A stretch of 64,000 bases of DNA from Spironucleus salmonicida (taxonomy: Eukaryota), in contig NC_090602.1 in NCBI RefSeq assembly GCF_000497125.1, forward strand, positions 1,240,001 to 1,304,000, written 5' to 3'. The notes below the pieces were generated by a model. It worked only from the letters and a program-made list of their open reading frames with translations. It was not told the DNA's origin and did no database searches. Shown here in pieces: positions 6,756-64,000 of the stretch. Within the stretch, counting starts at the first letter, position 1. Every line of letters starts with the position of its first letter. The position numbers and the translations under genes were made by a program.

Positions 6756-6762
6756 TTTATGG

Positions 6763-6779
6763 AGCGAAATTTTCAAATA
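6763..6779 (-). promoter_or_regulatory. TATTTGAAAATTTCGCT element 7 nt upstream of the DAW1-like ATG
   Basis: An identical 17-mer occurs at 3504-3520. Confidence 0.5.
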
Positions 6780-6904
6780 TGTGGAGTTGAACTCCTTGGT
6801 GGCTGGAAGTTAACTAAAAGATAATATAAAAAAATTCAGGATGTCTGAAATTGTACTTACTTCTCTATATCTGTTCAAAATGGGCCATTTCGTTTCCCCT
6901 TTCA

Positions 6905-8686: not shown

Positions 8687-8728
8687 GCTATTATATTATA
8701 GATATGATATTTATTCCCTTTCACTAAA

Positions 8729-10243
8729 ATGTCCATAGACAAACAAGTTTATTAGGCACGTTTTGACAAGCCAGATCACGCATGTAAGTTATTTCCAACT
8801 GATCCAACATCTAGAATTATTGCAGAGTAAACTCTTACTGCTATTCCAATGCTCCCATACGCAGAACTTTATGATCTTCATACTGACAAACCAGAAGTAG
8901 TAAAATCATCTTTGTATAGAACTTTAAGCGCCCATTTATCTCCAAATTTAGAACTCCATCAAAATTAACTATTCCCAATTCATTAAATATTGCGCTAAAT
9001 AACTGGAAATGATCCGAGCTCACCAGGGTTTCTGGGAGCTATAGCGCGCTAGAAGCTACATTTTAAGTCATTTTTACCATGGTTTTATCCAGAATAGACT
9101 GGCCTAATCTACGACTACCTAAGATAAGTCTAGGAGCATCAGCGACTTCACCAGCTTATCCTTAATAATAATCTAATAAACGATCATTTCTACCACTTTT
9201 TGACTGTTTTAGAACTTGAAGAGTTAGCGTTACGTCTTCCAAATCAGTTAACGTTCCTTACGCTCTTAACTTACATTGAAAAGCTAAATTTCAGTGAATT
9301 TGACCTCGTAGCTAACTTTCCTACCTAAAATCAAGATCTTCTGGCTCATATTTAAGCCTTCTAATTGAATTCCCTCCCAACCAATAAATTAGCTCAACTT
9401 TCACTATATTTTCGAAACCTAGCAATCAATATCCTCCCGAATCACGACCTTTTAATTAACCATAACTTCATTTAAACCTTAAATTCTGTTTAAGCTATTT
9501 ATATTCACTTCGAGCATTTTGTCTCTTCGGAGCAATTTCATTCCTAATTTTCGCTGTTTTAGCAGCAGCTTTTACACTCGAAAAAATAATTTTTCTAACT
9601 TCTTTTGAAGCTTTTCTAGTTATCAAAATTCAAGTAATTTGAGCTCGAAATTTACACTCAAATTTTTGAAGACTCCTACTCGTTTGTAGATTAAAATTTT
9701 GATTCAGCAGCGTTCACTTTCTTCGTTTTTTGTTCAGCTAGATATGTATTTTTGCTTAATCAGAATAATAGAAAATTTTCTTTCGTGTATGACAAGATTT
9801 TAAAGCTTATTAATACTGACAGATAGATTCTGATCGATTTAGAAGCAAATACGAGCGAAATCGACTAAATTTATCGGAATTTGACGAGTTTTAATTAGCA
9901 AGAAATGATGATTTAAACATAGAAAAATCGTTCATAGAAATAATTTATTATGCTTATTAAATAATATTAAATGAAAGGTATAAACTTGATTGACTAAGAG
10001 TCTATAAATCAATTTGAGCAAATAGTTTTCAAATCTAGCGATTAGATTTAAATTGGTTATAGTGGGCTCTTAAGCAGGGTTTAGTAGAGAGTAGATTTGG
10101 ACCGTTTTTCGAACAATATTGATGTTTCAAATTTGAAAAAATTTTATTTCAATTGCAACAGAACTGAAGGCGAAGAATCTGGTAAAGCTGTTAGTATGTT
10201 TAACATGTTACAGGCAATGATTGGTACCAGTTGTTTAGAATGA
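8729..10243 (+). CDS. Hypothetical protein, 504 aa
   Basis: ATG follows a C-rich element; 5' and 3' portions read open in code 6 to TGA 10241-10243; no family recognised. Confidence 0.65.
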
Positions 10244-37794: not shown

Positions 37795-37826
37795 TATGAG
37801 TTATATTGTCCTTCTACTTCCTAGCA

Positions 37827-38957
37827 ATGATCAACCATCTACCAGTGGCCATTGCGTTATTCATTCTTTTGAACTATATCGATCAGGTACAGTCCCTATA
37901 ACTTGGCAAGGACTATAGGGTGTATCTTTTTATTTTCATATCCCACGTTCTGCTCTGCGTGTACTACTCCAATCAGTTTAAATTAGCCAGGTACCCGTTC
38001 ATTAAGAAGATCGAGCTTAAAGTACTGGTATCCAGCCTGTTATTGGATCCCCTTTGGCTAGCTGAAATATTTAAACCAAATTTGGAATACTAGTCTATTG
38101 GCGCATTTGGTTTGTTTCTAATTATCAATGGTATGTTGTCATCAGATAATGTGATGTTCAGTATCGGATGTATGATACTACCTTCAGCAAATCCCCTGAT
38201 ATCTGTATTCACTTTGCTCCTGTTTTGGAAGGAGCTAGTACGCGCCCAAAAGATTAAATTAATATTACTATCGGCAATCTCACTGATTATTCACATATTT
38301 TATTTGAAAGATTTTAACCTAAACTATCTTGTAACGACAAAGAGCCAAGAATTCTGGCTGTACTACAAACTGTCCAGTACCAGATTCTAACCATACTACA
38401 GTTTGATCAGTATAACGCTTATTGGGGCTGTCCTTCTCTTGCGTAATAGGCGTATTCCGTAGATGCACAACCTTATTTACAAGCTTACGTTAATCTCCAT
38501 CATTCTCAAATCGATGTCCGTCTATAAATTCGACGCTTGTTTCCTACAGATCATCTTTTATTCTCTCACTTTGATCAATAAAAACCTATTCTTCATTCCA
38601 ATCTACTCTAGCTTTGTGTTTCTGGTCGTCTACCCGAAGATATACAAAAGTTGGAAAATTGGTATTGTAATCGCTGCGTCGTACGTCCTTTTCGTTGGAG
38701 TGTTAACACTTTTGTCAAGTTTTTACAAAAATCACATCTTCCGGTAGCAACGCATCTTAATGTTCTTGTTTTCGTTCCTACCAATCACCATAGTGGTGTT
38801 CTCCTTCTTTGGAGGAAATATAGTTCTGCTGATCCTTCAGGAAAGCTTCGAACTCTTCTACTTATTATTGATTTTCATCACAATATTAGTTATATACCTG
38901 ATTACTAATGGTGAGCAGGAGGAGTCTTTTTGGTAGAGCTCAGTGAGTGATTAGTGA
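37827..38957 (+). CDS. Multi-pass membrane protein, copy 1, 376 aa
   Basis: A code-6 frame joins supplied ORFs 38112 and 38463; many hydrophobic segments; ends TAG-TGA. Confidence 0.75.
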
Positions 38958-39025
38958 TAGTTATATTTCGAATCTTGAAATTCCATGTATTATACCCTAA
39001 CTACTGTAAAACTTAACTTTCCAGA

Positions 39026-39922
39026 ATGGATAGCGAACATTTTGATCTGCTCCGCTAGCAACACGAAGCCCGCTAGCTTTAACTTATGGCTGATATCAAT
39101 TAATTAAAATCTGAACTCGCTCATGAACGATCAGTGTCGGCCTAACTGAATAATTCGCTGATGACGCAGACAAACGCGCATGCTAATGATACATCGCAGC
39201 TATAGGCTTCCTTGGCAGCAGCACAACTTAGAACAGAGCAGCTTACCCAAATTAATACTGATAATAAAGCGGAACTTTACGACCTGCGAAACGAGCGACG
39301 AAACTCGTAGATGTAGCTTGATGCAGCTAGACATGAATTTTTCTCATTATAGCGGCAAAATTAAACGCAGAAAGAAGAATTAATTCGGATGCAATCTCAG
39401 TTTATGGAGAGATAGGGCGCATACGAGTCGAAAATTGAAACCCTTAAGGCCGCAATTAATGGAGTATCTGGGTTGAATAATTTTAGAAATGGCGGTTTCT
39501 CTGCTGCTGTTTCTGCACTTGTTGAATCTGGAAATGACAAAGAATTGTTTCTTGCAAAAATTGCTATGCTTACTAATTAGAATGACGAATTGCTTACGCA
39601 AAATGTGAAAAATGAAACCTAGATTAAGTAACTCAAAGTTAAGATCAAATAATATCAGCATTCTTTTGAAGGTAATAATGTCCCATCGGTGAAAATACTC
39701 ATGGAACAAGTGGAGTAACTTAATGAGGAGAAAGAAGTATTAGAGGACGAAGTGGATACGAAAGCCAAGAGGATGGTTAAAATGAAACATGATATTTAAG
39801 AGCTTATAAGCGAAAATAAGAAATTACGAGCTACTACTGTAGAAATGAAATAAAACTTCCGCAACCTGCAGGATATCCGAGAACAGATTCGGGAAATGAT
39901 TGATGACGAAATGAACGAATGA
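39026..39922 (+). CDS. Coiled-coil protein, copy 1, 298 aa
   Basis: MDSEHFDLLRQQHEARQ...IREMIDDEMNE; continuous heptad-rich frame. Confidence 0.8.
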
Positions 39923-41327
39923 TTAACTAAGCATGTCTACTACTGAGTTTTTCTATACTAATGCTCATTTGATAGAAATGTTATGGAAATAGTCCTAATA
40001 TTTCGGCAACAGGCTAAGATGACAAACTCACTATTTGTTGCAGATACACGAATATCTGGGATTTTCGGGTGATGTATGATTATAGAAGTGTTATTTATGT
40101 CTGTATACCAATTATTTTATAATTTTCACTAAGCTAAGTGAGCTAGCAGACTTAAATTAAAGAGTGTAACATCAATAAGATCGTAAAACATAAAATTTAT
40201 AGGCTTTAATGCACAATATATTATTTGAGTTTAAAATATTGCTATTATACAACTAGATTAGGAACTTTGAGATCGAAATTATTAGTTTGTTATATGAATA
40301 ATTAACCTTAAAGAATGATATTATACATCGATATATTGTATAGATTCACAAATTTTTATATTATTCATCTAATGTCTCTGTAATTATAACACTAATATAT
40401 TTTTAAATTATAATAGTCACTACCGAAAATATTGAGTAATATAGTACTATACACAATAAATATAAATAATAAGAAGATACTTATGGTATCAATTTTCTAC
40501 TATTCATTAAGAAAATACTATACTTTAAACATTATTACCATATTTATAGTCTATCTTAAATTTTACTATTTTAGTATAATAAATAACAATGCATATTTTC
40601 TATTTTTTAACTGTATATTGATTTGTATAATTTATTTACCGTTTATAATCCTTACAATCTATGGTAGCTAGTGATATAGTTTTATAAATCAATCATATGC
40701 TTTATAAAATCAATACCAAATTAATACTCTTATCTGTTGGATTTAAATTATTTGGGATATAACTTAGAATTTGGTAAATACATATTAGTAAAAACTTATA
40801 TTAACCACAGTGCACAAATTTCTGATAATCGTTCAAAAAAATAGAATTATTTTTATTTAATTAAGTGTCAGCGTTAACATTTTGATAAAGTATAATATAG
40901 ATTTGATAAATTTTTATATTTTATACTTATGATAGATAACTATTCATATAAATATTATTAATATATTGAATTCGGATACAAAATTAGACACTAATATCTA
41001 ATTATGCCTTAGATATGTAGTGTATTTCATTATCATCATCATAAAGTTGAGGCATATTATAATATGGTTTGAAACTAGTTTTCACAATGTATATCATATA
41101 AACCTATTAAAAAGATATAGTCTTTTATTATATGAAAAGTAATCAGTTTAAAAGGGTATATTACATATAATCATACATCACCCGAAAATCCCAGATATTC
41201 GTGTATCTGCAACAAATAGTGAGTTTGTCATCTTAGCCTGTTGCCGAAATATTAGGACTATTTCCATAACATTTCTATCAAATGAGCATTAGTATAGAAA
41301 AACTCAGTAGTAGACATGCTTAGTTAA

Positions 41328-42224
41328 TCATTCGTTCATTTCGTCATCAATCATTTCCCGAATCTGTTCTCGGATATCCTGCAGGTTGCGGAAGTTTTAT
41401 TTCATTTCTACAGTAGTAGCTCGTAATTTCTTATTTTCGCTTATAAGCTCTTAAATATCATGTTTCATTTTAACCATCCTCTTGGCTTTCGTATCCACTT
41501 CGTCCTCTAATACTTCTTTCTCCTCATTAAGTTACTCCACTTGTTCCATGAGTATTTTCACCGATGGGACATTATTACCTTCAAAAGAATGCTGATATTA
41601 TTTGATCTTAACTTTGAGTTACTTAATCTAGGTTTCATTTTTCACATTTTGCGTAAGCAATTCGTCATTCTAATTAGTAAGCATAGCAATTTTTGCAAGA
41701 AACAATTCTTTGTCATTTCCAGATTCAACAAGTGCAGAAACAGCAGCAGAGAAACCGCCATTTCTAAAATTATTCAACCCAGATACTCCATTAATTGCGG
41801 CCTTAAGGGTTTCAATTTTCGACTCGTATGCGCCCTATCTCTCCATAAACTGAGATTGCATCCGAATTAATTCTTCTTTCTGCGTTTAATTTTGCCGCTA
41901 TAATGAGAAAAATTCATGTCTAGCTGCATCAAGCTACATCTACGAGTTTCGTCGCTCGTTTCGCAGGTCGTAAAGTTCCGCTTTATTATCAGTATTAATT
42001 TGGGTAAGCTGCTCTGTTCTAAGTTGTGCTGCTGCCAAGGAAGCCTATAGCTGCGATGTATCATTAGCATGCGCGTTTGTCTGCGTCATCAGCGAATTAT
42101 TCAGTTAGGCCGACACTGATCGTTCATGAGCGAGTTCAGATTTTAATTAATTGATATCAGCCATAAGTTAAAGCTAGCGGGCTTCGTGTTGCTAGCGGAG
42201 CAGATCAAAATGTTCGCTATCCAT
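41328..42224 (-). CDS. Coiled-coil protein, copy 2
   Basis: Mirror of 39026-39922. Confidence 0.8.
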
Positions 42225-42292
42225 TCTGGAAAGTTAAGTTTTACAGTAGTTAGGGTATAATACATGGAATTTCAAGATTCGAAATATAACTA

Positions 42293-43423
42293 TCACTAAT
42301 CACTCACTGAGCTCTACCAAAAAGACTCCTCCTGCTCACCATTAGTAATCAGGTATATAACTAATATTGTGATGAAAATCAATAATAAGTAGAAGAGTTC
42401 GAAGCTTTCCTGAAGGATCAGCAGAACTATATTTCCTCCAAAGAAGGAGAACACCACTATGGTGATTGGTAGGAACGAAAACAAGAACATTAAGATGCGT
42501 TGCTACCGGAAGATGTGATTTTTGTAAAAACTTGACAAAAGTGTTAACACTCCAACGAAAAGGACGTACGACGCAGCGATTACAATACCAATTTTCCAAC
42601 TTTTGTATATCTTCGGGTAGACGACCAGAAACACAAAGCTAGAGTAGATTGGAATGAAGAATAGGTTTTTATTGATCAAAGTGAGAGAATAAAAGATGAT
42701 CTGTAGGAAACAAGCGTCGAATTTATAGACGGACATCGATTTGAGAATGATGGAGATTAACGTAAGCTTGTAAATAAGGTTGTGCATCTACGGAATACGC
42801 CTATTACGCAAGAGAAGGACAGCCCCAATAAGCGTTATACTGATCAAACTGTAGTATGGTTAGAATCTGGTACTGGACAGTTTGTAGTACAGCCAGAATT
42901 CTTGGCTCTTTGTCGTTACAAGATAGTTTAGGTTAAAATCTTTCAAATAAAATATGTGAATAATCAGTGAGATTGCCGATAGTAATATTAATTTAATCTT
43001 TTGGGCGCGTACTAGCTCCTTCCAAAACAGGAGCAAAGTGAATACAGATATCAGGGGATTTGCTGAAGGTAGTATCATACATCCGATACTGAACATCACA
43101 TTATCTGATGACAACATACCATTGATAATTAGAAACAAACCAAATGCGCCAATAGACTAGTATTCCAAATTTGGTTTAAATATTTCAGCTAGCCAAAGGG
43201 GATCCAATAACAGGCTGGATACCAGTACTTTAAGCTCGATCTTCTTAATGAACGGGTACCTGGCTAATTTAAACTGATTGGAGTAGTACACGCAGAGCAG
43301 AACGTGGGATATGAAAATAAAAAGATACACCCTATAGTCCTTGCCAAGTTATAGGGACTGTACCTGATCGATATAGTTCAAAAGAATGAATAACGCAATG
43401 GCCACTGGTAGATGGTTGATCAT
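42293..43423 (-). CDS. Multi-pass membrane protein, copy 2
   Basis: Mirror of 37827-38957. Confidence 0.75.
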
Positions 43424-43455
43424 TGCTAGGAAGTAGAAGGACAATATAACTCATA

Positions 43456-43821
43456 TCATAATAATACTATACCCTTTACTTTTTCAAGAAGCAGCTTAAT
43501 CTCGGTCTACCGATCGAACTTGTCATAGGTCATTGTGAGTATACATTCAAGCATATCTGCTATCTACCCTACTATTGCGCCCTTGTGCTCCTCCAGCGCT
43601 GTGCCTAGAACCAGTAGGATATCCTCATTTTTTAGGTAGCTCAGCACGCAACTAATTTCGTACTGGTTCCGCCTGCTATCCTAGTTCTTGTTCTCCAAGA
43701 ATCCTAACACCAACCCCTTCAGAATCCCTGCAACATCGACCCCGAAATTCATGAAGCCTGCTAGTAGGCTGAAGCACACCCGCACCACCGGCTCCTCGCT
43801 ACCAAGAATCTGCTGCCTCAT
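43456..43821 (-). pseudogene. Duplicated 3' fragment of the 35605-37794 gene, with an in-frame ATG just outside the arm (MRQQ-ILGSEEP..., 121 aa)
   Basis: Mirror of 37439-37794; ATG at 43819-43821 is in frame and an in-frame TGA lies upstream at 43837-43839. Confidence 0.55.
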
Positions 43822-48842: not shown

Positions 48843-51026
48843 TCAAGCGAACTGGATCTTCAAAATTCGAGCCAGCGACACTTTATAAATCTTGCTCGAA
48901 ATCGTCTCCAGAACGAGGAAAAAATTATGCTTCTGGTGGGGTTGCAGGGTGTTCAGTAGCGCTGTTAGCGGGGCGGCAGTGAGCGTTTTCCCCCTTTTTG
49001 GTGTTATAAAATAGCCGTTGGGTGCGGCGCGCGCATGCGGTTAAAAAGACGCCTCGATGCGGGGGACCTGAAATACAGTCTTTTGAACTTTTCCCATTTG
49101 GGGCAGTGCGCGTAATTCGTCAATGTCTCCGTCGTGTAAGTAAAATATGACAATTGCAATCAGATATAGCGCTATAGCGCAGGCGAATAAATCTTCACCA
49201 TAAATTGTTTACTGAAGGCTATACACGTAAATATCGTTCTCGGTTAAGTGGTAATTTCTGTGAATTTCGTGTATTTCGTGTTAAAAGGCGACTAAATTAT
49301 TATGTAAAATGTAATTTTAGAGAATAAAAGAAATTTCAAGATAATGCGGTTTTAACGTTGTTGGGTTGAAATTTGATAGGGGGATTATGTGCATCAGTGA
49401 TATTATAGAACTATTTATATATGGCTCTGTATTTAAAATATGAGCTATAAATGATGGCAGTAATTAAAAGTGATATGAGATAACTAGTTCAGGTGGAATT
49501 TAGTACATATTCTAAATTGATTTCGGAAATTTTAACATTTTACTTAGTACCGCAGCCTATGACTCTATAGTTTAGGAATTTAGATCAGTTGAAATCTCAT
49601 TAAATGCAGAACTAAGCATTGATTCAGTTAATCTTTTTGTAAAAAAAATATAAAGTATCTCTGAATGACTATACGTGGATAACACGATTCTTTAGATATT
49701 TTGTAAGCTTTATAGAGTTTAATGAATTTAATGTAATAATTCTTGCAAAGTTCTCTAGGTAGAATATTAATTCTTTTACTTTCGCATGCTATTACATAAA
49801 CTATATAAATTATATACTCACTTTAATAGTATCTAAATATTTTTAATGAAATATTCAAAATGGAACTTGTTATTAACATGCTTATTCAAAATTTAGATAA
49901 TTAGAAAAAGGTTATTTCGATCTTGCGAGTCCAGCTAATTTATTATCTATACAATACTTCCAATGGTGAATGTACTTTTAATATTTGTAACATTTATTTA
50001 CTAAAACAAATCACCAGACTATGTTATTTACTATTATTTTAATTAGATTATTGATTAAATATTCTAGTTTTGCTCTTAAAATACTTTAAAATATAATTGC
50101 TAATCATTTTTATTTGTTATTTCTTTAACTTATGATAGTTTCCCTCCAAGTAAATAAAAAATAACGATAGAAAAAATGAAGTATGCGCAACAACTCCTTT
50201 AAATAGAGATATCTCTTAATGATAGTGCTAATTCATAAATACAATAATTTTTTTTAGATAATTATAATGTTTCATAAATTTAATTTATTTATTATAAAAA
50301 TTAAATAATAAATGTATGTCTCAGCGTTTTTGACAAAATGTAACTTATTTCTAAATAATGTTTTCTTTAGTAGCATACAGATAACTATAAGGGTCGTAAT
50401 AATGTGATTAGAAATGATGTTTCATATTTTACCCGACTTTATTTTTATTATAAGAAATATAATGTCTATGGGAAAATTTATAACTGAAATGATAGTAATA
50501 ACTCTGGTGTAATCTATAGTTGTAAATTTTCTTTTATAGTATATTATGGAATTGTGATATACGATGGAAGATAAGTTAAAAGATTTGTTATTATTTTAGG
50601 ACCACCTTGCATAATTTTGAATCTAAGTTCTGAAATTGCAATTCTAAGACTATCCTCTGGAATTAACTCTTATAAAATAGATTCTAGAAATATATTTCCT
50701 TAAATTTAGTGCTTTAATAATTATATTTTTTCTATAATTTATTCTACTTATGGTAACATATTGAGTGCATATTTTATAAGTACTGTCGGTTTCAATTATT
50801 TTGATGCGGTCTTTTTGGTTCTGATTTTTCGGACAGATTCTGTCTATATTTAATTCATCATTTTCAACTATATGTTTTATAAAGTTGTTAAAATTGTTAC
50901 TTATTCTTAAGAAACAACATGTTCTTAAGATTCAAATGCCTAATTACAATTAAGACAAATAATGCTAGTCATATCATCTGATATTTTCGTATTATTTGAA
51001 CCACAATTACTGCATGTTGAATTCAT
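48843..51026 (-). CDS. TFIIB-type zinc-ribbon protein, probable TAF1B/Rrn7-like, 727 aa
   Basis: N-terminal CSNCGSNNTKISDDMTSIICLNC, helical body, C-terminal HNFFLVLETISSKIYKVSLARIL. Frame was checked in several blocks. Confidence 0.55.
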
Positions 51027-51103
51027 TCTTTTCTGCTGAAATTATATATAATATTATATAAATCTAATTACATTCGACTCTCCGTTTTAATCAAATCCAC
51101 TAA

Positions 51104-52771
51104 ATGTTAATTCCATCTACTACCTATGCCACTATTTCTAAGATTAATGGACCTCTTGTTACTATCACAGGAGTTAAAAACCCAACATATGGAGAAATAG
51201 TGAACGTTTTATTACCTGATGGTACCAAACGTACTGGTAAAGTGCTTGAAACTTTAGAAGATAAGGCTGTAGTCTAAATTTTTGAAGGTACTGAAAAGTT
51301 AGATATACTAAACTCTAAAGTTGAACTTACTGGTGAACTTATGTAGATTGGTGTTTCTAAACATATGTTAGGTAGAGTATTTGATGGTTAGGGTCGTCCA
51401 ATTGATAATGGTCCTGAAATTATTCCTGAAATGTATTTAGATGTTGAAGGTGCTTCAATCAATCCTTGTAAACGTGTTTATCCCAAATAAATGATTTAAA
51501 CTGGTATATCTTGTATTGATGTCATGACATCTATTGCCCGTGGCCAGAAGATTCCTTTATTCTCTGGCTCTGGTTTGCCTCATAACGAAGTAGCAGCTTA
51601 AATTTGTCGTTAAGCTAAGCTTGTTGATGTTGATGGCCGCAAAGCTGGTTCTGGTGATGATAATTTTGCTATCGTATTTGCTGGTATGGGTTTAACACAT
51701 GAAGCTGCTCGCTTTTTCTAGGAGAATTTCACATAATCTGGTGCTATTTAGCGTACTATTTTATTTTTAAATACTTCTAATTCTCCTACAATTGAACGTA
51801 TCATGACGCCTCGTTTAGCTTTAACTACTGCTGAATTTTTAGCATTTACACATAATTATCATATATTAGTTATTCTTACTGATATGACCTAATACGCTGA
51901 TGCAGTTCGTTAAATTTCAATCTAAAAATAAGAGTTACCTGGTCGTAAATCTTATCCTGGTTATTTATATACTGATTTAGCTTCTATTTATGAGCGTGCT
52001 GGTAGAATTGATCAGAATAACTGGTTTTTAGGTATCAGAAACGGGAACGATGTTTAGTAAATTGGTATGATTAATACTAATTCATTTAAAGTAGAAAATA
52101 TTAAGGTTAACATGCATCATATCTATTAATTATAAAAGGATGGTAAAATTGAACTCAAAGATACTGCTACTGATGAAGATGTTAAAGTCGAAAAGATAAC
52201 TGAATTTACAGATTTCGAAGCTTTCAACAAAGATCCTACTTAATATAAGAATTTAATTATTTATTCTAGAAAGAATGAAAATTCTGGCTCAATCACCTAG
52301 ATCCCTATTTTAACACTGCCAAACGATGATATTTCACACACTATTCCCGATTTAACTGGTTATATTACTGAAGGTTAAGTTTTTGTTTCTCGTAAACTAT
52401 CAAATATGGGGTTGTATCCTTGTTTAGATCCCCTACCTTCTCTCTCACGTTTAATGAAGTCAGCTATCGGTGAAGGTATGTCTAGAAAAGACCATCAAGA
52501 TGTTTCTAACTAGTTATATTATTGTTATGCTTTAGCCTAGGAAGTATAAAACATCAAATAAATTGTTGGTGAGGACGCTCTTAGCGCTGATGATAAAATC
52601 TATCTTGCATTCTTAAATGAGTTTGAGACTAAATTCCTCAAACAAGGTTAGTTCGAAGATAGATCTATTTAAGAATCTCTTGACATTGCATGGGGAATCC
52701 TTAGAATGTTCCCTGAAAGACTTTTGTAACGTATTCCAAATGACATTATCGAATAATTTTACAGAAAGTGA
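51104..52771 (+). CDS. VMA2: V-type ATPase subunit B with an internal insertion, 555 aa
   Basis: [72 protein letters not shown]. Confidence 0.96.
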
Positions 52772-52870
52772 TGTTTTATTTTGCTATTTCGTATTTTCGT
52801 TACATAGAATTATAATTTTGTATATATATTTACTCTAGTTCAAATACTATCTTTTTTCACTTCCTCATAA

Positions 52871-54100
52871 ATGAAAATTAAACCATAAAAACGCTTATTA
52901 ATTCATATTTAGAATTAGTTTTACCAATATTTTTCAAATCAACAGATTCAGAATCTGTATTTTATCATTAATGGCGAACATACAAACTCGGCCTTAATGA
53001 TTTTTCTTCTCCAAAATTTCAATGCTAAACAGCAAAAGCAGTTCACTCTAACAGTTTCCGGAGACCAAATCACCCAAGAAGCCTCACTGATAGTTGAAAA
53101 TTATCACCTGGCACTTACACCTAATATACCTCCTGAAAACGCACTGTACGTCTCCCTGCTCAGCAAAAATGCCTTAATTACTAGTTTTTTGGATCAAATT
53201 TTTGAAAAATCTCACTTTTACCTCTTTTCATAGATTTCCGACATAGAGCTCTAGGAGCAGGCCGAACAGGCCGATTTCAGTTTCACGGCGATGCCCTTCA
53301 CGCCGTTTATGGAGAAGTCCGTCCATGTCAACTATTCGGTGATCTCTAATCTACAGAAGTCACTGATAGCATTCTAGCTGTCCAAACCGGTCAAAATTGA
53401 GCCATTTTACCGCTTCCCAGAGCCGCTGGGAGGTGTCCCTCCCGCACTGCTGAACTCAGCCTGCCGCATTTTATCAACCGCGCAACCTCAAAAAAAGACG
53501 ATTCTGGTCGCTTTTTCTGGTGGAAAAGACTCCGCGGCGACGTATCTAACGTTACAGGCATTGCAGCCCCGCTTCGATTTTGCTCTCAAGGCACAGCTTT
53601 TCGACCCGCAGCTGCCGGGATTTTCGACGGAAAGGGTGCAGAAAGTGGCTGATTATTTCGGAATTCCACTCGAAATCGTGACTAAAAAGGTTGTCCCGCA
53701 GGACTTCTCGTTATGCGCCTCATGTGCTCGCGCGCGGCGAATTGCGCTCCTGGAGTCCAGACCAGCGTTTCTAGCGCTTGGTCACCATCTAAAGGACTCG
53801 GTAGAGACCATTTTGATGACCGGAATGCACAATGGCGCTTTTTTTCCGCTCCGGGGACTATACACCCCGGAGATCGACGGGGTGGACGGGGAGACGCGAG
53901 TGATCCGGCCGCTGCTGGACTGCACGCAGGGGGACGTGCTGGCATTCACCGGTGCGTTCGCGGTGGAATTCGTGAGCTCCGACGCAGCCGAGTGCGACTT
54001 CGCTGCACGGGGAGGTGGAAAGGAGAGCGAAAGGGGGAGAATCCGGCGGTTCCTAGACGGGCGCGACTACGGCTGGTTCGCGGAAATGGGCTATGAATGA
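52871..54100 (+). CDS. PP-loop ATPase, TtcA-like tRNA thiolation enzyme with an N-terminal extension, 409 aa
   Basis: ILVAFSGGKDS, DPQLPGF, LCASCARARR, LALGHHLKDSVET and VIRPL; the frame joins supplied ORFs 52997 and 53561. Confidence 0.8.
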
Positions 54101-54113
54101 GAAACGGGTACAA

Positions 54114-54464
54114 TCACTTGTTGGAGGAATACTTGGAGATGGCAGACTCGGCGTGAGACTGGGCGGCCTTGTAGAGCTCACCACCGTTAAGCACGAGTTT
54201 GGCGGCAGCGGTGATCTGGGACTTACCAATGGTGTTACGGTGGTGCTGTCTGGCGATCTGGGAGGCTTCGGAGGCGATTCTCTCGAAGAGATCGTTGACC
54301 ATGGAGTTCATGGCGGCCATGCACTGCTTGGAGACACCACAGTCAGCGTCCTTGCCCTGGAAGGCATCAGAGGCCTTGAGAACCTTGAGGATGTAGGTAC
54401 CATAGGTCTCTACTCTCTTCATCTTACGGGTAGCTTTGGCTTCAGGGGCGGATCCAAGGGACAT
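54114..54464 (-). CDS. H2B: Histone H2B, copy 1
   Basis: KRVETYGTYILKVLK, MNSMVNDLFERIASEAS, AKLVL.GEL, AISKY. Confidence 0.95.
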   Translation of the reverse strand: MSLGSAPEAKATRKMKRVETYGTYILKVLKASDAFQGKDADCGVSKQCMAAMNSMVNDLFERIASEASQIARQHHRNTIGKSQITAAAKLVLNGGELYKAAQSHAESAISKYSSNK

Positions 54465-54691
54465 TTTAAATAGTGGAGTGGAAATGCCAATCTAGGCACC
54501 TGGGCCTAGTCACTTGCGCAGGCTCACTTTTGCGAAATCACTATACTCCACATTATTATATTGCATATACCTCGTATACTCGGGAGAAAGCGAAATAGCC
54601 CAAAGATGGCTGAGTCTACTTTTGTGTACACTTCATCCTACAACGGCGACTTAATGACTTCGCACCTAGGCAGGCAGCCTCCAGTGGTCAG

Positions 54692-55531
54692 TCAGATAGC
54701 ACGATCTCTGATGCTCTACCACGCCATTAACTCACAAATCACGCTGCCGGCGACACACCTGGCGCGCGTGCTCAAGGTGTACACGAACGCAGCATCGCAT
54801 AGCGGGTCGATTTCACACAGCAGCTGGTTCTTTAAGACTACAGCCCCTGTCTCAAGTAGACCTAACAGCAGTCCAGATACAGGCGCACATACGCTGAGCT
54901 GGCCTCGGCGATGGGTCACAGCATCCATTTTTCGGTTGAGGCACTCGCCGGACTCTGTCTACAGGCCCCCCTCATCAGACTCAATGACTCCTATCGGGTC
55001 TCCTATTTTTACAAACTCTCCAATCCCTCGTTTTGCTGTCCACCTCCCGCCGATCTCAGCGCGGGCCTCGCGTTCGAATGAATATCCACCGATTAGCTCT
55101 GGCTCCGACATTTTCTACTGTTTCTAGCGTGTTCCCGCATAGCGCCCCGACTTTTAGATTACAATACTGGCCGTTAGACCCTCTATTCCCCAATTGGTTG
55201 AAATTGTCACCCCTTGGAATTTGAATTGGGTGGGTGCGGTGTTAACAACAATATCATATTAGATATCGGATAGAAACTTAGACGAACTCGTCAAAACCGG
55301 TATAATATTGTCCACTAGGGCCTTGTTAAGCTGTTCTAGCGTCGTTACCCGACGTGCAGTTACCCCCTCTACCTCGAATCCTCCTACAAAAACCGCTTAG
55401 CAAAAGCTTTTCATTCGCTTTAGCGAAGTGGGATGATCTAGTTCTAGGCAGAATGCTGTGATTTATAACCGGGACAGGTAGATGGTCACGGCAGTGCCAA
55501 CCTCTCCCGCACCGATTACAAGGACTCTCAT
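54692..55531 (-). CDS. yqeB: YqeB-family protein (selenium-dependent molybdenum hydroxylase system), copy 1, 279 aa
   Basis: MRVLVIGAGEVGTAV, LELDHPTSLKRMKSFCQAV..VEGVTARR, PELIGGYSFEREARA, IGEFVKIGDPIG, APVSGLLLGLL, EIDP, ARCVAGSV. Fully translated in code 6. Confidence 0.85.
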
Positions 55532-56149
55532 TCGAAATAATATATGAATCAATATATAATAACGGCTTCCACTTACATCTGAAATTAAACATAGAATGCC
55601 TGCACATTCACTGCAATGATTTCCACCATTATTGACTCCTATGTACAATTCAACGATGCAAAATTCTATCCCACAAATTGATTTTATTATCCGTTGATTG
55701 TGTTAGCTCAACTTTGTTACTGCATTTAAGTCTTATAGGCAACATTGTTGAAGCCCTTAATATTTGTGAAGATTTGAAGCCATGATCGTAATTTCACATT
55801 AGTAACTAACGCAATAGTGTCCTTTTAGGCTTATAGAAATATATGATATATAGAAAACAAATGACAGGTGGTTCCAGTTAAAATAATGGCCTTAATTTAT
55901 ATTTAAGCTTCATACTGGAGAAAAGTTAGAGTTTTTCATTTTATTTATTTATACTAGCCGTTTATGAAATTTATATCGTACTCCTGACTGGCACTCGTAA
56001 TTTTCGATATTTAATCATCATTTTATCTGTGCCTCCAATGATAGAGCTTAAACACTACTGTTACATTTTTTGTTCTTTGGCAATTTTCTCAAACCGATGA
56101 ATTTATCCTGCTACACACCTTCACACCCTCAGCATCAGTTGAGGAGCGC

Positions 56150-56350
56150 GTGATCCGGCCGCTGCTGGACTGCACGCAGGGGGACGTGCTGGCATTCACC
56201 GGTGCGTTCGCGGTGGAATTCGTGAGCTCCGACGCAGCCGAGTGCGACTTCGCTGCACGGGGAGGTGGAAAGGAGAGCGAAAGGGGGAGAATCCGGCGGT
56301 TCCTAGACGGGCGCGACTACGGCTGGTTCGCGGAAATGGGCTATGAATGA
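56150..56350 (+). pseudogene. 3' fragment of the TtcA-like gene at the array junction (also 58400-58600, 60650-60850, 62900-63100)
   Basis: Identical to 53900-54100; no in-frame ATG back to the upstream in-frame TGA. Confidence 0.8.
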
Positions 56351-56363
56351 GAAACGGGTACAA

Positions 56364-56714
56364 TCACTTGTTGGAGGAATACTTGGAGATGGCAGACTCG
56401 GCGTGAGACTGGGCGGCCTTGTAGAGCTCACCACCGTTAAGCACGAGTTTGGCGGCAGCGGTGATCTGGGACTTACCAATGGTGTTACGGTGGTGCTGTC
56501 TGGCGATCTGGGAGGCTTCGGAGGCGATTCTCTCGAAGAGATCGTTGACCATGGAGTTCATGGCGGCCATGCACTGCTTGGAGACACCACAGTCAGCGTC
56601 CTTGCCCTGGAAGGCATCAGAGGCCTTGAGAACCTTGAGGATGTAGGTACCATAGGTCTCTACTCTCTTCATCTTACGGGTAGCTTTGGCTTCAGGGGCG
56701 GATCCAAGGGACAT
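56364..56714 (-). CDS. H2B: Histone H2B, copy 2
   Basis: Identical to copy 1. Confidence 0.95.
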   Translation of the reverse strand: MSLGSAPEAKATRKMKRVETYGTYILKVLKASDAFQGKDADCGVSKQCMAAMNSMVNDLFERIASEASQIARQHHRNTIGKSQITAAAKLVLNGGELYKAAQSHAESAISKYSSNK

Positions 56715-56941
56715 TTTAAATAGTGGAGTGGAAATGCCAATCTAGGCACCTGGGCCTAGTCACTTGCGCAGGCTCACTTTTGCGAAATCACTATACTCCA
56801 CATTATTATATTGCATATACCTCGTATACTCGGGAGAAAGCGAAATAGCCCAAAGATGGCTGAGTCTACTTTTGTGTACACTTCATCCTACAACGGCGAC
56901 TTAATGACTTCGCACCTAGGCAGGCAGCCTCCAGTGGTCAG

Positions 56942-57781
56942 TCAGATAGCACGATCTCTGATGCTCTACCACGCCATTAACTCACAAATCACGCTGCCGG
57001 CGACACACCTGGCGCGCGTGCTCAAGGTGTACACGAACGCAGCATCGCATAGCGGGTCGATTTCACACAGCAGCTGGTTCTTTAAGACTACAGCCCCTGT
57101 CTCAAGTAGACCTAACAGCAGTCCAGATACAGGCGCACATACGCTGAGCTGGCCTCGGCGATGGGTCACAGCATCCATTTTTCGGTTGAGGCACTCGCCG
57201 GACTCTGTCTACAGGCCCCCCTCATCAGACTCAATGACTCCTATCGGGTCTCCTATTTTTACAAACTCTCCAATCCCTCGTTTTGCTGTCCACCTCCCGC
57301 CGATCTCAGCGCGGGCCTCGCGTTCGAATGAATATCCACCGATTAGCTCTGGCTCCGACATTTTCTACTGTTTCTAGCGTGTTCCCGCATAGCGCCCCGA
57401 CTTTTAGATTACAATACTGGCCGTTAGACCCTCTATTCCCCAATTGGTTGAAATTGTCACCCCTTGGAATTTGAATTGGGTGGGTGCGGTGTTAACAACA
57501 ATATCATATTAGATATCGGATAGAAACTTAGACGAACTCGTCAAAACCGGTATAATATTGTCCACTAGGGCCTTGTTAAGCTGTTCTAGCGTCGTTACCC
57601 GACGTGCAGTTACCCCCTCTACCTCGAATCCTCCTACAAAAACCGCTTAGCAAAAGCTTTTCATTCGCTTTAGCGAAGTGGGATGATCTAGTTCTAGGCA
57701 GAATGCTGTGATTTATAACCGGGACAGGTAGATGGTCACGGCAGTGCCAACCTCTCCCGCACCGATTACAAGGACTCTCAT
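56942..57781 (-). CDS. yqeB: YqeB-family protein, copy 2
   Basis: Copy 1 + 2250. Confidence 0.85.
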
Positions 57782-58613
57782 TCGAAATAATATATGAATC
57801 AATATATAATAACGGCTTCCACTTACATCTGAAATTAAACATAGAATGCCTGCACATTCACTGCAATGATTTCCACCATTATTGACTCCTATGTACAATT
57901 CAACGATGCAAAATTCTATCCCACAAATTGATTTTATTATCCGTTGATTGTGTTAGCTCAACTTTGTTACTGCATTTAAGTCTTATAGGCAACATTGTTG
58001 AAGCCCTTAATATTTGTGAAGATTTGAAGCCATGATCGTAATTTCACATTAGTAACTAACGCAATAGTGTCCTTTTAGGCTTATAGAAATATATGATATA
58101 TAGAAAACAAATGACAGGTGGTTCCAGTTAAAATAATGGCCTTAATTTATATTTAAGCTTCATACTGGAGAAAAGTTAGAGTTTTTCATTTTATTTATTT
58201 ATACTAGCCGTTTATGAAATTTATATCGTACTCCTGACTGGCACTCGTAATTTTCGATATTTAATCATCATTTTATCTGTGCCTCCAATGATAGAGCTTA
58301 AACACTACTGTTACATTTTTTGTTCTTTGGCAATTTTCTCAAACCGATGAATTTATCCTGCTACACACCTTCACACCCTCAGCATCAGTTGAGGAGCGCG
58401 TGATCCGGCCGCTGCTGGACTGCACGCAGGGGGACGTGCTGGCATTCACCGGTGCGTTCGCGGTGGAATTCGTGAGCTCCGACGCAGCCGAGTGCGACTT
58501 CGCTGCACGGGGAGGTGGAAAGGAGAGCGAAAGGGGGAGAATCCGGCGGTTCCTAGACGGGCGCGACTACGGCTGGTTCGCGGAAATGGGCTATGAATGA
58601 GAAACGGGTACAA

Positions 58614-58964
58614 TCACTTGTTGGAGGAATACTTGGAGATGGCAGACTCGGCGTGAGACTGGGCGGCCTTGTAGAGCTCACCACCGTTAAGCACGAGTTT
58701 GGCGGCAGCGGTGATCTGGGACTTACCAATGGTGTTACGGTGGTGCTGTCTGGCGATCTGGGAGGCTTCGGAGGCGATTCTCTCGAAGAGATCGTTGACC
58801 ATGGAGTTCATGGCGGCCATGCACTGCTTGGAGACACCACAGTCAGCGTCCTTGCCCTGGAAGGCATCAGAGGCCTTGAGAACCTTGAGGATGTAGGTAC
58901 CATAGGTCTCTACTCTCTTCATCTTACGGGTAGCTTTGGCTTCAGGGGCGGATCCAAGGGACAT
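58614..58964 (-). CDS. H2B: Histone H2B, copy 3
   Basis: Identical to copy 1. Confidence 0.95.
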   Translation of the reverse strand: MSLGSAPEAKATRKMKRVETYGTYILKVLKASDAFQGKDADCGVSKQCMAAMNSMVNDLFERIASEASQIARQHHRNTIGKSQITAAAKLVLNGGELYKAAQSHAESAISKYSSNK

Positions 58965-59191
58965 TTTAAATAGTGGAGTGGAAATGCCAATCTAGGCACC
59001 TGGGCCTAGTCACTTGCGCAGGCTCACTTTTGCGAAATCACTATACTCCACATTATTATATTGCATATACCTCGTATACTCGGGAGAAAGCGAAATAGCC
59101 CAAAGATGGCTGAGTCTACTTTTGTGTACACTTCATCCTACAACGGCGACTTAATGACTTCGCACCTAGGCAGGCAGCCTCCAGTGGTCAG

Positions 59192-60031
59192 TCAGATAGC
59201 ACGATCTCTGATGCTCTACCACGCCATTAACTCACAAATCACGCTGCCGGCGACACACCTGGCGCGCGTGCTCAAGGTGTACACGAACGCAGCATCGCAT
59301 AGCGGGTCGATTTCACACAGCAGCTGGTTCTTTAAGACTACAGCCCCTGTCTCAAGTAGACCTAACAGCAGTCCAGATACAGGCGCACATACGCTGAGCT
59401 GGCCTCGGCGATGGGTCACAGCATCCATTTTTCGGTTGAGGCACTCGCCGGACTCTGTCTACAGGCCCCCCTCATCAGACTCAATGACTCCTATCGGGTC
59501 TCCTATTTTTACAAACTCTCCAATCCCTCGTTTTGCTGTCCACCTCCCGCCGATCTCAGCGCGGGCCTCGCGTTCGAATGAATATCCACCGATTAGCTCT
59601 GGCTCCGACATTTTCTACTGTTTCTAGCGTGTTCCCGCATAGCACCCCGACTTTTAGATTACAATACTGGCCGTTAGACCCTCTATTCCCCAATTGGTTG
59701 AAATTGTCACCCCTTGGAATTTGAATTGGGTGGGTGCGGTGTTAACAACAATATCATATTAGATATCGGATAGAAACTTAGACGAACTCGTCAAAACCGG
59801 TATAATATTGTCCACTAGGGCCTTGTTAAGCTGTTCTAGCGTCGTTACCCGACGTGCAGTTACCCCCTCTACCTCGAATCCTCCTACAAAAACCGCTTAG
59901 CAAAAGCTTTTCATTCGCTTTAGCGAAGTGGGATGATCTAGTTCTAGGCAGAATGCTGTGATTTATAACCGGGACAGGTAGATGGTCACGGCAGTGCCAA
60001 CCTCTCCCGCACCGATTACAAGGACTCTCAT
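59192..60031 (-). CDS. yqeB: YqeB-family protein, copy 3 (Arg to Cys variant)
   Basis: Copy 1 + 4500; G>A at 59644 changes CGC to TGC. Confidence 0.85.
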
Positions 60032-60863
60032 TCGAAATAATATATGAATCAATATATAATAACGGCTTCCACTTACATCTGAAATTAAACATAGAATGCC
60101 TGCACATTCACTGCAATGATTTCCACCATTATTGACTCCTATGTACAATTCAACGATGCAAAATTCTATCCCACAAATTGATTTTATTATCCGTTGATTG
60201 TGTTAGCTCAACTTTGTTACTGCATTTAAGTCTTATAGGCAACATTGTTGAAGCCCTTAATATTTGTGAAGATTTGAAGCCATGATCGTAATTTCACATT
60301 AGTAACTAACGCAATAGTGTCCTTTTAGGCTTATAGAAATATATGATATATAGAAAACAAATGACAGGTGGTTCCAGTTAAAATAATGGCCTTAATTTAT
60401 ATTTAAGCTTCATACTGGAGAAAAGTTAGAGTTTTTCATTTTATTTATTTATACTAGCCGTTTATGAAATTTATATCGTACTCCTGACTGGCACTCGTAA
60501 TTTTCGATATTTAATCATCATTTTATCTGTGCCTCCAATGATAGAGCTTAAACACTACTGTTACATTTTTTGTTCTTTGGCAATTTTCTCAAACCGATGA
60601 ATTTATCCTGCTACACACCTTCACACCCTCAGCATCAGTTGAGGAGCGCGTGATCCGGCCGCTGCTGGACTGCACGCAGGGGGACGTGCTGGCATTCACC
60701 GGTGCGTTCGCGGTGGAATTCGTGAGCTCCGACGCAGCCGAGTGCGACTTCGCTGCACGGGGAGGTGGAAAGGAGAGCGAAAGGGGGAGAATCCGGCGGT
60801 TCCTAGACGGGCGCGACTACGGCTGGTTCGCGGAAATGGGCTATGAATGAGAAACGGGTACAA

Positions 60864-61214
60864 TCACTTGTTGGAGGAATACTTGGAGATGGCAGACTCG
60901 GCGTGAGACTGGGCGGCCTTGTAGAGCTCACCACCGTTAAGCACGAGTTTGGCGGCAGCGGTGATCTGGGACTTACCAATGGTGTTACGGTGGTGCTGTC
61001 TGGCGATCTGGGAGGCTTCGGAGGCGATTCTCTCGAAGAGATCGTTGACCATGGAGTTCATGGCGGCCATGCACTGCTTGGAGACACCACAGTCAGCGTC
61101 CTTGCCCTGGAAGGCATCAGAGGCCTTGAGAACCTTGAGGATGTAGGTACCATAGGTCTCTACTCTCTTCATCTTACGGGTAGCTTTGGCTTCAGGGGCG
61201 GATCCAAGGGACAT
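60864..61214 (-). CDS. H2B: Histone H2B, copy 4
   Basis: Identical to copy 1. Confidence 0.95.
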   Translation of the reverse strand: MSLGSAPEAKATRKMKRVETYGTYILKVLKASDAFQGKDADCGVSKQCMAAMNSMVNDLFERIASEASQIARQHHRNTIGKSQITAAAKLVLNGGELYKAAQSHAESAISKYSSNK

Positions 61215-61441
61215 TTTAAATAGTGGAGTGGAAATGCCAATCTAGGCACCTGGGCCTAGTCACTTGCGCAGGCTCACTTTTGCGAAATCACTATACTCCA
61301 CATTATTATATTGCATATACCTCGTATACTCGGGAGAAAGCGAAATAGCCCAAAGATGGCTGAGTCTACTTTTGTGTACACTTCATCCTACAACGGCGAC
61401 TTAATGACTTCGCACCTAGGCAGGCAGCCTCCAGTGGTCAG

Positions 61442-62281
61442 TCAGATAGCACGATCTCTGATGCTCTACCACGCCATTAACTCACAAATCACGCTGCCGG
61501 CGACACACCTGGCGCGCGTGCTCAAGGTGTACACGAACGCAGCATCGCATAGCGGGTCGATTTCACACAGCAGCTGGTTCTTTAAGACTACAGCCCCTGT
61601 CTCAAGTAGACCTAACAGCAGTCCAGATACAGGCGCACATACGCTGAGCTGGCCTCGGCGATGGGTCACAGCATCCATTTTTCGGTTGAGGCACTCGCCG
61701 GACTCTGTCTACAGGCCCCCCTCATCAGACTCAATGACTCCTATCGGGTCTCCTATTTTTACAAACTCTCCAATCCCTCGTTTTGCTGTCCACCTCCCGC
61801 CGATCTCAGCGCGGGCCTCGCGTTCGAATGAATATCCACCGATTAGCTCTGGCTCCGACATTTTCTACTGTTTCTAGCGTGTTCCCGCATAGCGCCCCGA
61901 CTTTTAGATTACAATACTGGCCGTTAGACCCTCTATTCCCCAATTGGTTGAAATTGTCACCCCTTGGAATTTGAATTGGGTGGGTGCGGTGTTAACAACA
62001 ATATCATATTAGATATCGGATAGAAACTTAGACGAACTCGTCAAAACCGGTATAATATTGTCCACTAGGGCCTTGTTAAGCTGTTCTAGCGTCGTTACCC
62101 GACGTGCAGTTACCCCCTCTACCTCGAATCCTCCTACAAAAACCGCTTAGCAAAAGCTTTTCATTCGCTTTAGCGAAGTGGGATGATCTAGTTCTAGGCA
62201 GAATGCTGTGATTTATAACCGGGACAGGTAGATGGTCACGGCAGTGCCAACCTCTCCCGCACCGATTACAAGGACTCTCAT
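61442..62281 (-). CDS. yqeB: YqeB-family protein, copy 4
   Basis: Copy 1 + 6750. Confidence 0.85.
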
Positions 62282-63113
62282 TCGAAATAATATATGAATC
62301 AATATATAATAACGGCTTCCACTTACATCTGAAATTAAACATAGAATGCCTGCACATTCACTGCAATGATTTCCACCATTATTGACTCCTATGTACAATT
62401 CAACGATGCAAAATTCTATCCCACAAATTGATTTTATTATCCGTTGATTGTGTTAGCTCAACTTTGTTACTGCATTTAAGTCTTATAGGCAACATTGTTG
62501 AAGCCCTTAATATTTGTGAAGATTTGAAGCCATGATCGTAATTTCACATTAGTAACTAACGCAATAGTGTCCTTTTAGGCTTATAGAAATATATGATATA
62601 TAGAAAACAAATGACAGGTGGTTCCAGTTAAAATAATGGCCTTAATTTATATTTAAGCTTCATACTGGAGAAAAGTTAGAGTTTTTCATTTTATTTATTT
62701 ATACTAGCCGTTTATGAAATTTATATCGTACTCCTGACTGGCACTCGTAATTTTCGATATTTAATCATCATTTTATCTGTGCCTCCAATGATAGAGCTTA
62801 AACACTACTGTTACATTTTTTGTTCTTTGGCAATTTTCTCAAACCGATGAATTTATCCTGCTACACACCTTCACACCCTCAGCATCAGTTGAGGAGCGCG
62901 TGATCCGGCCGCTGCTGGACTGCACGCAGGGGGACGTGCTGGCATTCACCGGTGCGTTCGCGGTGGAATTCGTGAGCTCCGACGCAGCCGAGTGCGACTT
63001 CGCTGCACGGGGAGGTGGAAAGGAGAGCGAAAGGGGGAGAATCCGGCGGTTCCTAGACGGGCGCGACTACGGCTGGTTCGCGGAAATGGGCTATGAATGA
63101 GAAACGGGTACAA

Positions 63114-63464
63114 TCACTTGTTGGAGGAATACTTGGAGATGGCAGACTCGGCGTGAGACTGGGCGGCCTTGTAGAGCTCACCACCGTTAAGCACGAGTTT
63201 GGCGGCAGCGGTGATCTGGGACTTACCAATGGTGTTACGGTGGTGCTGTCTGGCGATCTGGGAGGCTTCGGAGGCGATTCTCTCGAAGAGATCGTTGACC
63301 ATGGAGTTCATGGCGGCCATGCACTGCTTGGAGACACCACAGTCAGCGTCCTTGCCCTGGAAGGCATCAGAGGCCTTGAGAACCTTGAGGATGTAGGTAC
63401 CATAGGTCTCTACTCTCTTCATCTTACGGGTAGCTTTGGCTTCAGGGGCGGATCCAAGGGACAT
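63114..63464 (-). CDS. H2B: Histone H2B, copy 5
   Basis: Identical to copy 1. Confidence 0.95.
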   Translation of the reverse strand: MSLGSAPEAKATRKMKRVETYGTYILKVLKASDAFQGKDADCGVSKQCMAAMNSMVNDLFERIASEASQIARQHHRNTIGKSQITAAAKLVLNGGELYKAAQSHAESAISKYSSNK

Positions 63465-63691
63465 TTTAAATAGTGGAGTGGAAATGCCAATCTAGGCACC
63501 TGGGCCTAGTCACTTGCGCAGGCTCACTTTTGCGAAATCACTATACTCCACATTATTATATTGCATATACCTCGTATACTCGGGAGAAAGCGAAATAGCC
63601 CAAAGATGGCTGAGTCTACTTTTGTGTACACTTCATCCTACAACGGCGACTTAATGACTTCGCACCTAGGCAGGCAGCCTCCAGTGGTCAG

Positions 63692-64000
63692 TCAGATAGC
63701 ACGATCTCTGATGCTCTACCACGCCATTAACTCACAAATCACGCTGCCGGCGACACACCTGGCGCGCGTGCTCAAGGTGTACACGAACGCAGCATCGCAT
63801 AGCGGGTCGATTTCACACAGCAGCTGGTTCTTTAAGACTACAGCCCCTGTCTCAAGTAGACCTAACAGCAGTCCAGATACAGGCGCACATACGCTGAGCT
63901 GGCCTCGGCGATGGGTCACAGCATCCATTTTTCGGTTGAGGCACTCGCCGGACTCTGTCTACAGGCCCCCCTCATCAGACTCAATGACTCCTATCGGGTC
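63692..64000 (-). CDS. yqeB: YqeB-family protein, copy 5 (5' part lies beyond the window end)
   Basis: Copy 1 + 9000, cut by the window edge. Confidence 0.8.

Follow-up and report, generated by a model that had tools for sequence, protein, structure and literature searches.

Tandem arrays of a single histone gene, and the concerted evolution of their copies, are well known, and in the array described here, a repeat of the histone H2B gene in the diplomonad Spironucleus salmonicida, it is the passenger that is unusual and not the mechanism. In trypanosomatids each core histone is found in a tandem array of its own and its mRNAs are polyadenylated, as for the present array; the trypanosomatid arrays belong to polycistronic units and, to our knowledge, hold no foreign gene as a passenger. 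The S. salmonicida repeat lies in a stretch of 64,000 nucleotides (nt) (positions 1,240,001 to 1,304,000 of the forward strand of contig NC_090602.1, NCBI RefSeq assembly GCF_000497125.1), hereafter the window, numbered from its first letter. Each unit couples H2B to one gene of the YqeB family, a gene of bacterial type.

The chromosome-scale assembly of S. salmonicida published in 2022 (Xu et al., PMC9509377) reports a 40-copy 5S array and, on chromosome 3, a tandem array of histone H4 with interspersed reverse transcriptase genes. Like the H2B array, this is one core histone running head to tail, in about ten copies, with non-histone genes in between. It differs in containing pseudo-copies and in its irregular interspersion, whereas the H2B array has a strict unit of 2250 base pairs (bp) in which H2B alternates with one YqeB-family gene. 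Neither H2B nor an H2B array is mentioned in the 2022 paper. Histone/5S or rDNA arrays in Artemia, Mytilus and the boll weevil (PMC13525598) likewise carry an unrelated gene in each unit and undergo concerted evolution; their units consist of histone quartets or quintets plus rRNA genes, whereas the present one combines a single histone with a bacterial-type protein-coding gene. A 2026 review of histone organisation (PMC13525598) describes pairs, quartets or quintets, single genes and histone/rRNA interspersion, with no unit made of a single histone and a bacterial-type gene, and gives two to three single copies per core histone for Giardia. H2B thereby joins H4 as an arrayed histone in S. salmonicida, unlike the 2-3 dispersed copies in Giardia.

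The array was delimited by setting the window against a copy of itself shifted by 2250 positions, since Tandem Repeats Finder, with a longest period of 500, returned 0 rows. Identity at this offset is unbroken throughout the array except at 57394 and 59644, both mismatches stemming from one change at 59644, so that 10,101 bp contain a single between-unit change. The period is exactly 2250 bp, 4.49 units fall within the window, and the repeat continues past the window end. The initial annotation, made from the letters of the sequence, had proposed at least 4.5 near-identical 2,250-bp units produced by a recent or homogenised amplification; the first part was borne out, and the second fits one change per 10.1 kb. 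By tblastn, the window holds five H2B genes, four complete and one partial YqeB-like gene, and one full PP-loop ATPase gene with four stubs of it. Reading along the minus strand of each unit, the YqeB-like gene comes first, then a 227-bp intergenic region, then H2B. On the plus strand of unit 1, the PP-loop gene contributes its final 201 bp (53900-54100), convergent with H2B, and the left edge of the array lies inside that gene.

Four of the eight public sequencing runs that contain the stretch were compared: X1 and X3, which are DNA, and X5 and X6, from a second study, which are RNA-type; the RNA nature of the four 2019 runs to which X5 and X6 belong is a guess, none being on record as RNA. 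Contigs were assembled run by run, by a method other than that of the genome assembly. The depth of the unit contig was 94.6 in X1, with 12.8 for the single-copy flank contig (ratio 7.39), and 1287.1 in X3, with 177.9 for the flank (ratio 7.23), a summed contig depth not being a copy number. X1 also yielded a self-closing contig of 2280 nt, that is, one unit plus 30 nt. An X3 contig descends from 54986 to 53900 and then from 56149 to 55542, and so crosses a unit-to-unit joint with 608 and 1087 letters on either side. The joint in the per-run contigs and the roughly 7.3-fold unit depth indicate that the array is genuine and not an assembly artefact; single-copy read depth, which had been named beforehand as the outcome that would count against it, was not seen. 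With its 2250-bp period, all five H2B frames intact and the joint recovered in a separately built contig, the array is a real chromosomal head-to-tail repeat in S. salmonicida.

We regard as probable, if well short of certain, an account in which one non-homologous duplication was expanded and homogenised by unequal exchange, H2B dosage being favoured or tolerated and the YqeB-like gene and PP-loop stub being passengers. The founding event would have duplicated a single 2250-bp segment with breakpoints at 53899/53900 and 56149/56150, extending from the 3' interior of the PP-loop gene, through the convergent H2B gene and the upstream YqeB-family gene, into the AT-rich spacer. Seven of the 12 bases preceding the two breakpoints agree between the unique flank and the spacer end; microhomology was considered and rejected, as this match was judged no better than chance, and the duplication would thus have occurred without extended homology as its driver. 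The unit would then have multiplied by unequal exchange between sister or homologous copies, and the same exchange, or gene conversion, would hold the copies near-identical. Each unit would supply a complete H2B transcription unit, comprising an A/T-rich start region, 116 codons, a 13-nt 3' untranslated region (UTR) and a poly(A) tail. H2B dosage would be the trait favoured or tolerated by selection, and the YqeB-like gene and the start-less PP-loop stub would travel along owing to where the founding breakpoints fell. We lean towards hitchhiking of YqeB over selection for YqeB dosage because H4 is also arrayed, the H2B contigs of the RNA-type runs are very deep, and the YqeB-like protein forms the longest branch of its tree and has lost near-invariant motifs; sequence alone leaves this choice undecided.

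Several points weigh against this account. Selection on H2B dosage, neutral amplification and selection on YqeB are not separated by these data. The YqeB-like gene is open in every copy and covered by RNA-type contigs, and so may be a working gene whose higher dose is of use. The old annotation places another H2B gene, SS50377_10199, between unrelated genes, and the array is therefore not the sole source of H2B. X1 and X3 derive from one sample, possibly the source of the assembly itself, and are thus independent data and not an independent sample. The distinction between contig depth and copy number limits the unit count, and the depth ratio is perhaps inflated by composition bias, the flank having about 34% GC and the unit 47%; in view of both, we put the total length at probably about 7 units, perhaps 5-7. 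Short X3 contig pieces inside YqeB (55012-55580) have depths of 712.9 and 1716.1, 4.0 and 9.6 times that of the flank, and one X3 contig exits the unit at 55580 into sequence absent from the window, its 30-nt loose end staying unmatched in the window even with 3 mismatches allowed. The odd depths and this exit may reflect variant units beyond the window or partial YqeB copies elsewhere.

Table 1 Features of the H2B-YqeB array and its left border (positions in the window; aa, amino acids; GC3, GC content at third codon positions)
Feature	Position	Strand	Basis or remark
Tandem array	53900..64000	.	Exact 2250-bp period; 4.49 units in window; continues past window end
Unit 1	53900-56149	.	Cut by the 2250-bp period
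Unit 2	56150-58399	.	Identical to unit 1
Unit 3	58400-60649	.	One change from unit 1, at offset 1245, G to A
Unit 4	60650-62899	.	Identical to unit 1
Partial unit 5	62900-64000	.	1101 nt; identical to unit 1; ends at window edge
Sole between-unit change in window	59644	.	G to A in unit 3; R130C in YqeB
H2B gene, 116 aa, stop TGA	54114..54464	-	Pfam Histone match, tblastn
Further H2B copies	56364-56714, 58614-58964, 60864-61214, 63114-63464	-	tblastn
H2B 3' UTR, 13 nt, poly(A) site at 54101	54101..54113	-	Untemplated T runs in X5 and X6 contigs
Intergenic region, 227 bp, YqeB stop to H2B ATG	54465..54691	-	A/T-rich directly before the ATG; sequence only
YqeB-family gene, 279 aa, 8 in-frame TAA/TAG as Q	54692..55531	-	Table 6 frame, TIGR03309
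Further YqeB-like copies	56942-57781, 59192-60031 (R130C), 61442-62281	-	tblastn
Partial YqeB-like copy	63692-64000	-	Cut by window end
Possible N-terminal YqeB extension, 84 codons, ATG at 55783	55532-55783	-	GC3 0.24, against 0.53 in the core
AT-rich spacer, 618 bp, 32.5% GC	55532..56149	.	Includes the possible YqeB extension
Full PP-loop ATPase gene, TtcA/TilS-like, 409 aa	52871..54100	+	Table 6 frame; overlaps unit 1 by its last 201 bp
Dead PP-loop 3' stub, 201 bp, last 66 codons and stop	56150..56350	+	Start-less
Further PP-loop stubs	58400-58600, 60650-60850, 62900-63100	+	tblastn

On the Pfam family Histone (PF00125), which has a cut-off of 26.4 bits, the histone of the unit scores 50.7. 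Among named proteins it is closest to H2B of Giardia muris (51% identity) and of Hexamita inflata, and a Giardia H2B aligned at 52.8% identity by tblastn; a histone fold above the Pfam cut-off and nearest named relatives that are all H2B identify it as this core histone. All S. salmonicida H2B proteins fall into one single-sequence cluster, and tblastn found no H2B copies in the window beyond the five. The Pfam scan took in 15 of the 79 listed open frames, the small frames left of 53215 lying outside the histone scan. Among the 11 scanned frames of at least 70 aa that overlap the PP-loop 3' region and unit 1, H2B alone matched a histone family; the unit thus lacks H2A, H3 and H4, in agreement with the initial annotation. 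The 2014 annotation contains a further H2B gene, SS50377_10199, located between genes for a hypothetical protein and a periodic tryptophan protein (PMC6397501), which is probably a solitary copy elsewhere.

In both RNA-type runs, contigs extend over H2B and terminate in untemplated poly(A), indicating that the arrayed histone is expressed, subject to the guessed RNA nature of these runs. In X5 as in X6, untemplated T runs stand directly before 54101, where the genome is not T-rich, which places the poly(A) site at this base. UTRs of 9-14 nt at the 3' end are typical of S. salmonicida, with the TGA itself central to the signal (Andersson et al. 2007, PMC1805757). The poly(A) site of H2B is thereby measured, and its 3' UTR of 13 nt reaches right up to the end of the convergent gene: the PP-loop stop occupies 54098-54100 and the H2B stop 54114-54116, and the 13-nt gap reported between the two stops stands. 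Since 54101 is the base adjoining the PP-loop stop codon, no stub sequence lies within the H2B mRNA. The idea that the stub matters for preserving the H2B 3' region is weakened accordingly; the 201 bp of the stub appear to have been retained by chance, through the position of the founding breakpoint. The 227-bp region between the YqeB stop and the H2B start codon is the presumed H2B promoter.

Contig depth in X5 was 5943-10000 for H2B, 26.4 for the PP-loop gene and 237.7 for the contig over YqeB and the spacer; such depths are unfit for ranking genes, and that of H2B is a weak hint of expression. The RNA-type contigs end at gene borders, with no cover at 52800-52883 as read from the first depth bin. 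One of them begins at 52884, consistent with the proposed start of the PP-loop gene.

The product of the PP-loop gene matches Pfam PP-loop with 48.3 bits (cut-off 27) and the NCBIfam TtcA model with 71.1 bits, short of the cut-off of 272. In an older annotation (PMC6397501) the gene is SS50377_13021, and its Giardia orthologues are named PP-loop ATPases. Given this score and these orthologues, we name it a PP-loop ATPase of TtcA/TilS type. The initial annotation had listed the contents of the unit as H2B, YqeB, an AT-rich spacer and the 3' fragment of a neighbouring TtcA-like gene; all four components are present, and for the fragment the broader name is preferred to 'TtcA-like'. The further description 'prokaryote-derived' fits YqeB and is not established for the PP-loop gene, which, having orthologues in Giardia, we do not treat as a recent bacterial import. 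No in-frame ATG lies upstream of the PP-loop stubs.

The unit as a whole has 47.1% GC, with GC3 values of 0.72 for H2B, 0.53 for YqeB and 0.76 for the stub. GC content begins to rise inside the PP-loop gene, near 53230, at a point some 670 bp to the left of where the array starts, and the spacer, although repeated, still has 32.5% GC. Together, these values indicate that the array arose in a pre-existing GC-rich patch. The spacer is not, or not yet, GC-enriched by repetition. Duplicated regions of S. salmonicida are richer in GC, at 44.7% against 30.7% (PMC9509377), and an array placed in sequence that was GC-rich beforehand is relevant to the proposal that duplication itself raises GC content in this species. 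Rfam gave no match in 52800-56400 at E-values up to 0.1. Directly beside the GC-rich patch lies a V-type ATPase subunit B-like gene (50936-52771, plus strand; GC3 0.23); the match to its nucleotide-binding domain is split in two, suggestive of an insertion.

A purely neutral origin, in which the array belongs among numerous recent segmental duplications of a duplication-prone genome, its copies are held identical by gene conversion and neither gene is under selection for dose, is unlikely in our view and yet the alternative that survives best. The 2022 assembly contains widespread duplicated regions of at least 95% identity (PMC9509377), and the window itself contains a perfect 2646-nt inverted repeat elsewhere. 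The unit includes a useless gene stub and a 618-bp spacer, as expected of random breakpoints. Against these observations, about seven copies require repeated expansion and not a single event, and a second core histone, H4, is arrayed too, which would be an unlikely chance under random duplication.

The YqeB-like gene has a published history. The 2014 genome paper (PMC3916229) described selenium machinery in S. salmonicida, including tRNA-Sec and a SelD-NifS fusion, and three identical copies of YqeB, the first in a eukaryote. In the old gene order (PMC6397501 supplement), the PP-loop gene SS50377_13021 is followed by the H2B gene 13020 and then by a scaffold end adjoining a truncated YqeB gene (EST46867), with at least two more YqeB genes, 13473 and 13475, recorded; values in that supplement are fold changes, not expression levels. 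The adjacency of H2B and YqeB has been in public annotation since 2014, and no description of an H2B-YqeB repeat unit was found in the limited collection of literature searched. The array explains why this gene, at the time the sole YqeB-type gene known from a eukaryote, was present three times in identical form in the 2014 assembly. As array copies travelling with H2B, they are not independent evidence that a selenium trait was amplified.

In S. salmonicida TAA and TAG are read as glutamine (NCBI table 6). Under the standard code, the YqeB region appears as five pieces in different-looking frames that match TIGR03309 in order; interpretation as exons or as a frameshifted pseudogene was dropped, as the region is a single open frame under table 6, intact in all four complete copies. 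The only variant among the YqeB-like copies in the window is the replacement R130C, and both forms occur in public collections (P0034, P0036). The protein scores 107.4 bits against TIGR03309 (E = 8.1e-31), below the equivalog cut-off of 220, in a match that is colinear over profile positions 1-254 and falls in two stretches. Judged by this match, it is homologous to the TIGR03309 family, which does not imply functional equivalence beyond that. An equivalog would also be expected alongside SelD, YqeC and a molybdenum hydroxylase; of these three, SelD is represented by the SelD-NifS fusion of the 2014 paper. It differs from the bacterial members in being eukaryotic, in using TAA and TAG as glutamine codons and in being arrayed with a histone gene.

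In an alignment of the S. salmonicida protein with 10 relatives of bacterial type, 56 columns are invariant across all 11 sequences, necessarily including this protein. Among the invariant residues that it keeps are a GxGxxG-like start and the motifs VEGVTAR, IIPVL, LIGGY..ER and DP.C. The stretches ILAKRNLG, G.DCH and ETMRGH are nearly invariant in all ten relatives; in the S. salmonicida protein the first two are deleted and the third is altered, so that these near-invariant motifs of the family are not retained. It also carries a 26-residue insert. The Hexamita inflata relative keeps the corresponding TDCH and ETNRGH stretches and not the ILAKRNLG stretch. Pfam has no family for the YqeB-like protein, and no solved structure was found, the best E-value in the PDB being 0.06.

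A word-indexed search returned 65 proteins, the next best after the protein itself at 30% identity. An exhaustive search returned 599 proteins at E<=0.001 and 107 at E<=1e-10, with the protein itself the only one at E<=1e-30. The names of ten proteins, eight of which were YqeB hits, were consulted, and two Hexamita inflata proteins of the YqeB family, at 33% identity, were the sole eukaryotic relatives with a name among them; a member of the protein's own cluster, from S. salmonicida, also bears the name 'YqeB family'. In a 51-row tree, the S. salmonicida protein has the longest end branch (2.51, median 1.02). In a quick tree built without constraint, the S. salmonicida and Hexamita proteins stayed apart, and a constrained tree that joins the two diplomonad proteins was better by 17.4 log-likelihood units (approximately unbiased test, p-AU 0.733), the long branches making either placement unsure. 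As the joint diplomonad tree is not rejected, a single old acquisition of YqeB is compatible with these data.

YqeB is covered by RNA-type contigs, at a contig depth in X5 at least about 24-fold below that of H2B, a comparison that does not rank the genes. The X5 contig over YqeB and the spacer also takes in 89 nt from the 5' end of H2B, and these could by themselves produce its mean depth. The spacer contigs of the RNA-type runs possibly reflect faint DNA carry-over, seven-fold enriched in the array. Public annotation lists a 279-aa form of the YqeB-like protein (P0034/P0036) and a 363-aa form (P0101), and one RNA-type contig extends to 55867, past both candidate starts (55531 and 55783). Antisense to H2B and YqeB, every unit contains a 447-aa open frame under table 6 (54093-55433, plus strand, in unit 1) with no family match; where the code has a single stop codon, an open frame says little either way.

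Selection for YqeB dosage with H2B as the passenger, supplying more of a selenium-related maturation factor to a selenium-using parasite, is a rather improbable explanation. It would agree with the tRNA-Sec and SelD-NifS fusion of this species and with the singling out of the gene, in three identical copies, in the 2014 paper (PMC3916229). It would also agree with the intact frame in all four complete copies, and with the Hexamita inflata relatives, whose shared origin with the S. salmonicida protein is not rejected, as for a gene long retained. On the other side, no member of the family is more divergent than this protein, which lacks near-invariant motifs and scores under the family cut-off; the sole between-copy variant is the replacement R130C, and the X5 contig depth, a weak indication, is far below that of H2B. 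A further version, in which the YqeB-like protein is a bacterial selenium-cofactor maturation protein that has taken on a new role in Spironucleus and has its dose tied to H2B by the shared repeat unit, unequal exchange shifting the two doses jointly, is very doubtful; if it held, this would be the first histone array with a unit built around a selected, laterally acquired protein-coding gene. Over-expansion of a single unit, or of some other unit number, by the long-read assembler is highly improbable and, the exact number aside, largely refuted: identical-unit arrays are difficult to size and the right end lies beyond the window, but contigs built by a different method contain the joint, the unit has about 7.3-fold depth in both DNA runs compared, and the 2014 assembly already had three YqeB copies with scaffolds broken at the locus.

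Elsewhere in the window, a perfect inverted repeat occupies 37439-40084 and 41166-43811, with 2646-nt arms that are 100% complementary and 1081 nt apart. In each arm lie a membrane-like frame of 376 aa and a coiled-coil-like frame of 298 aa, the same in both.

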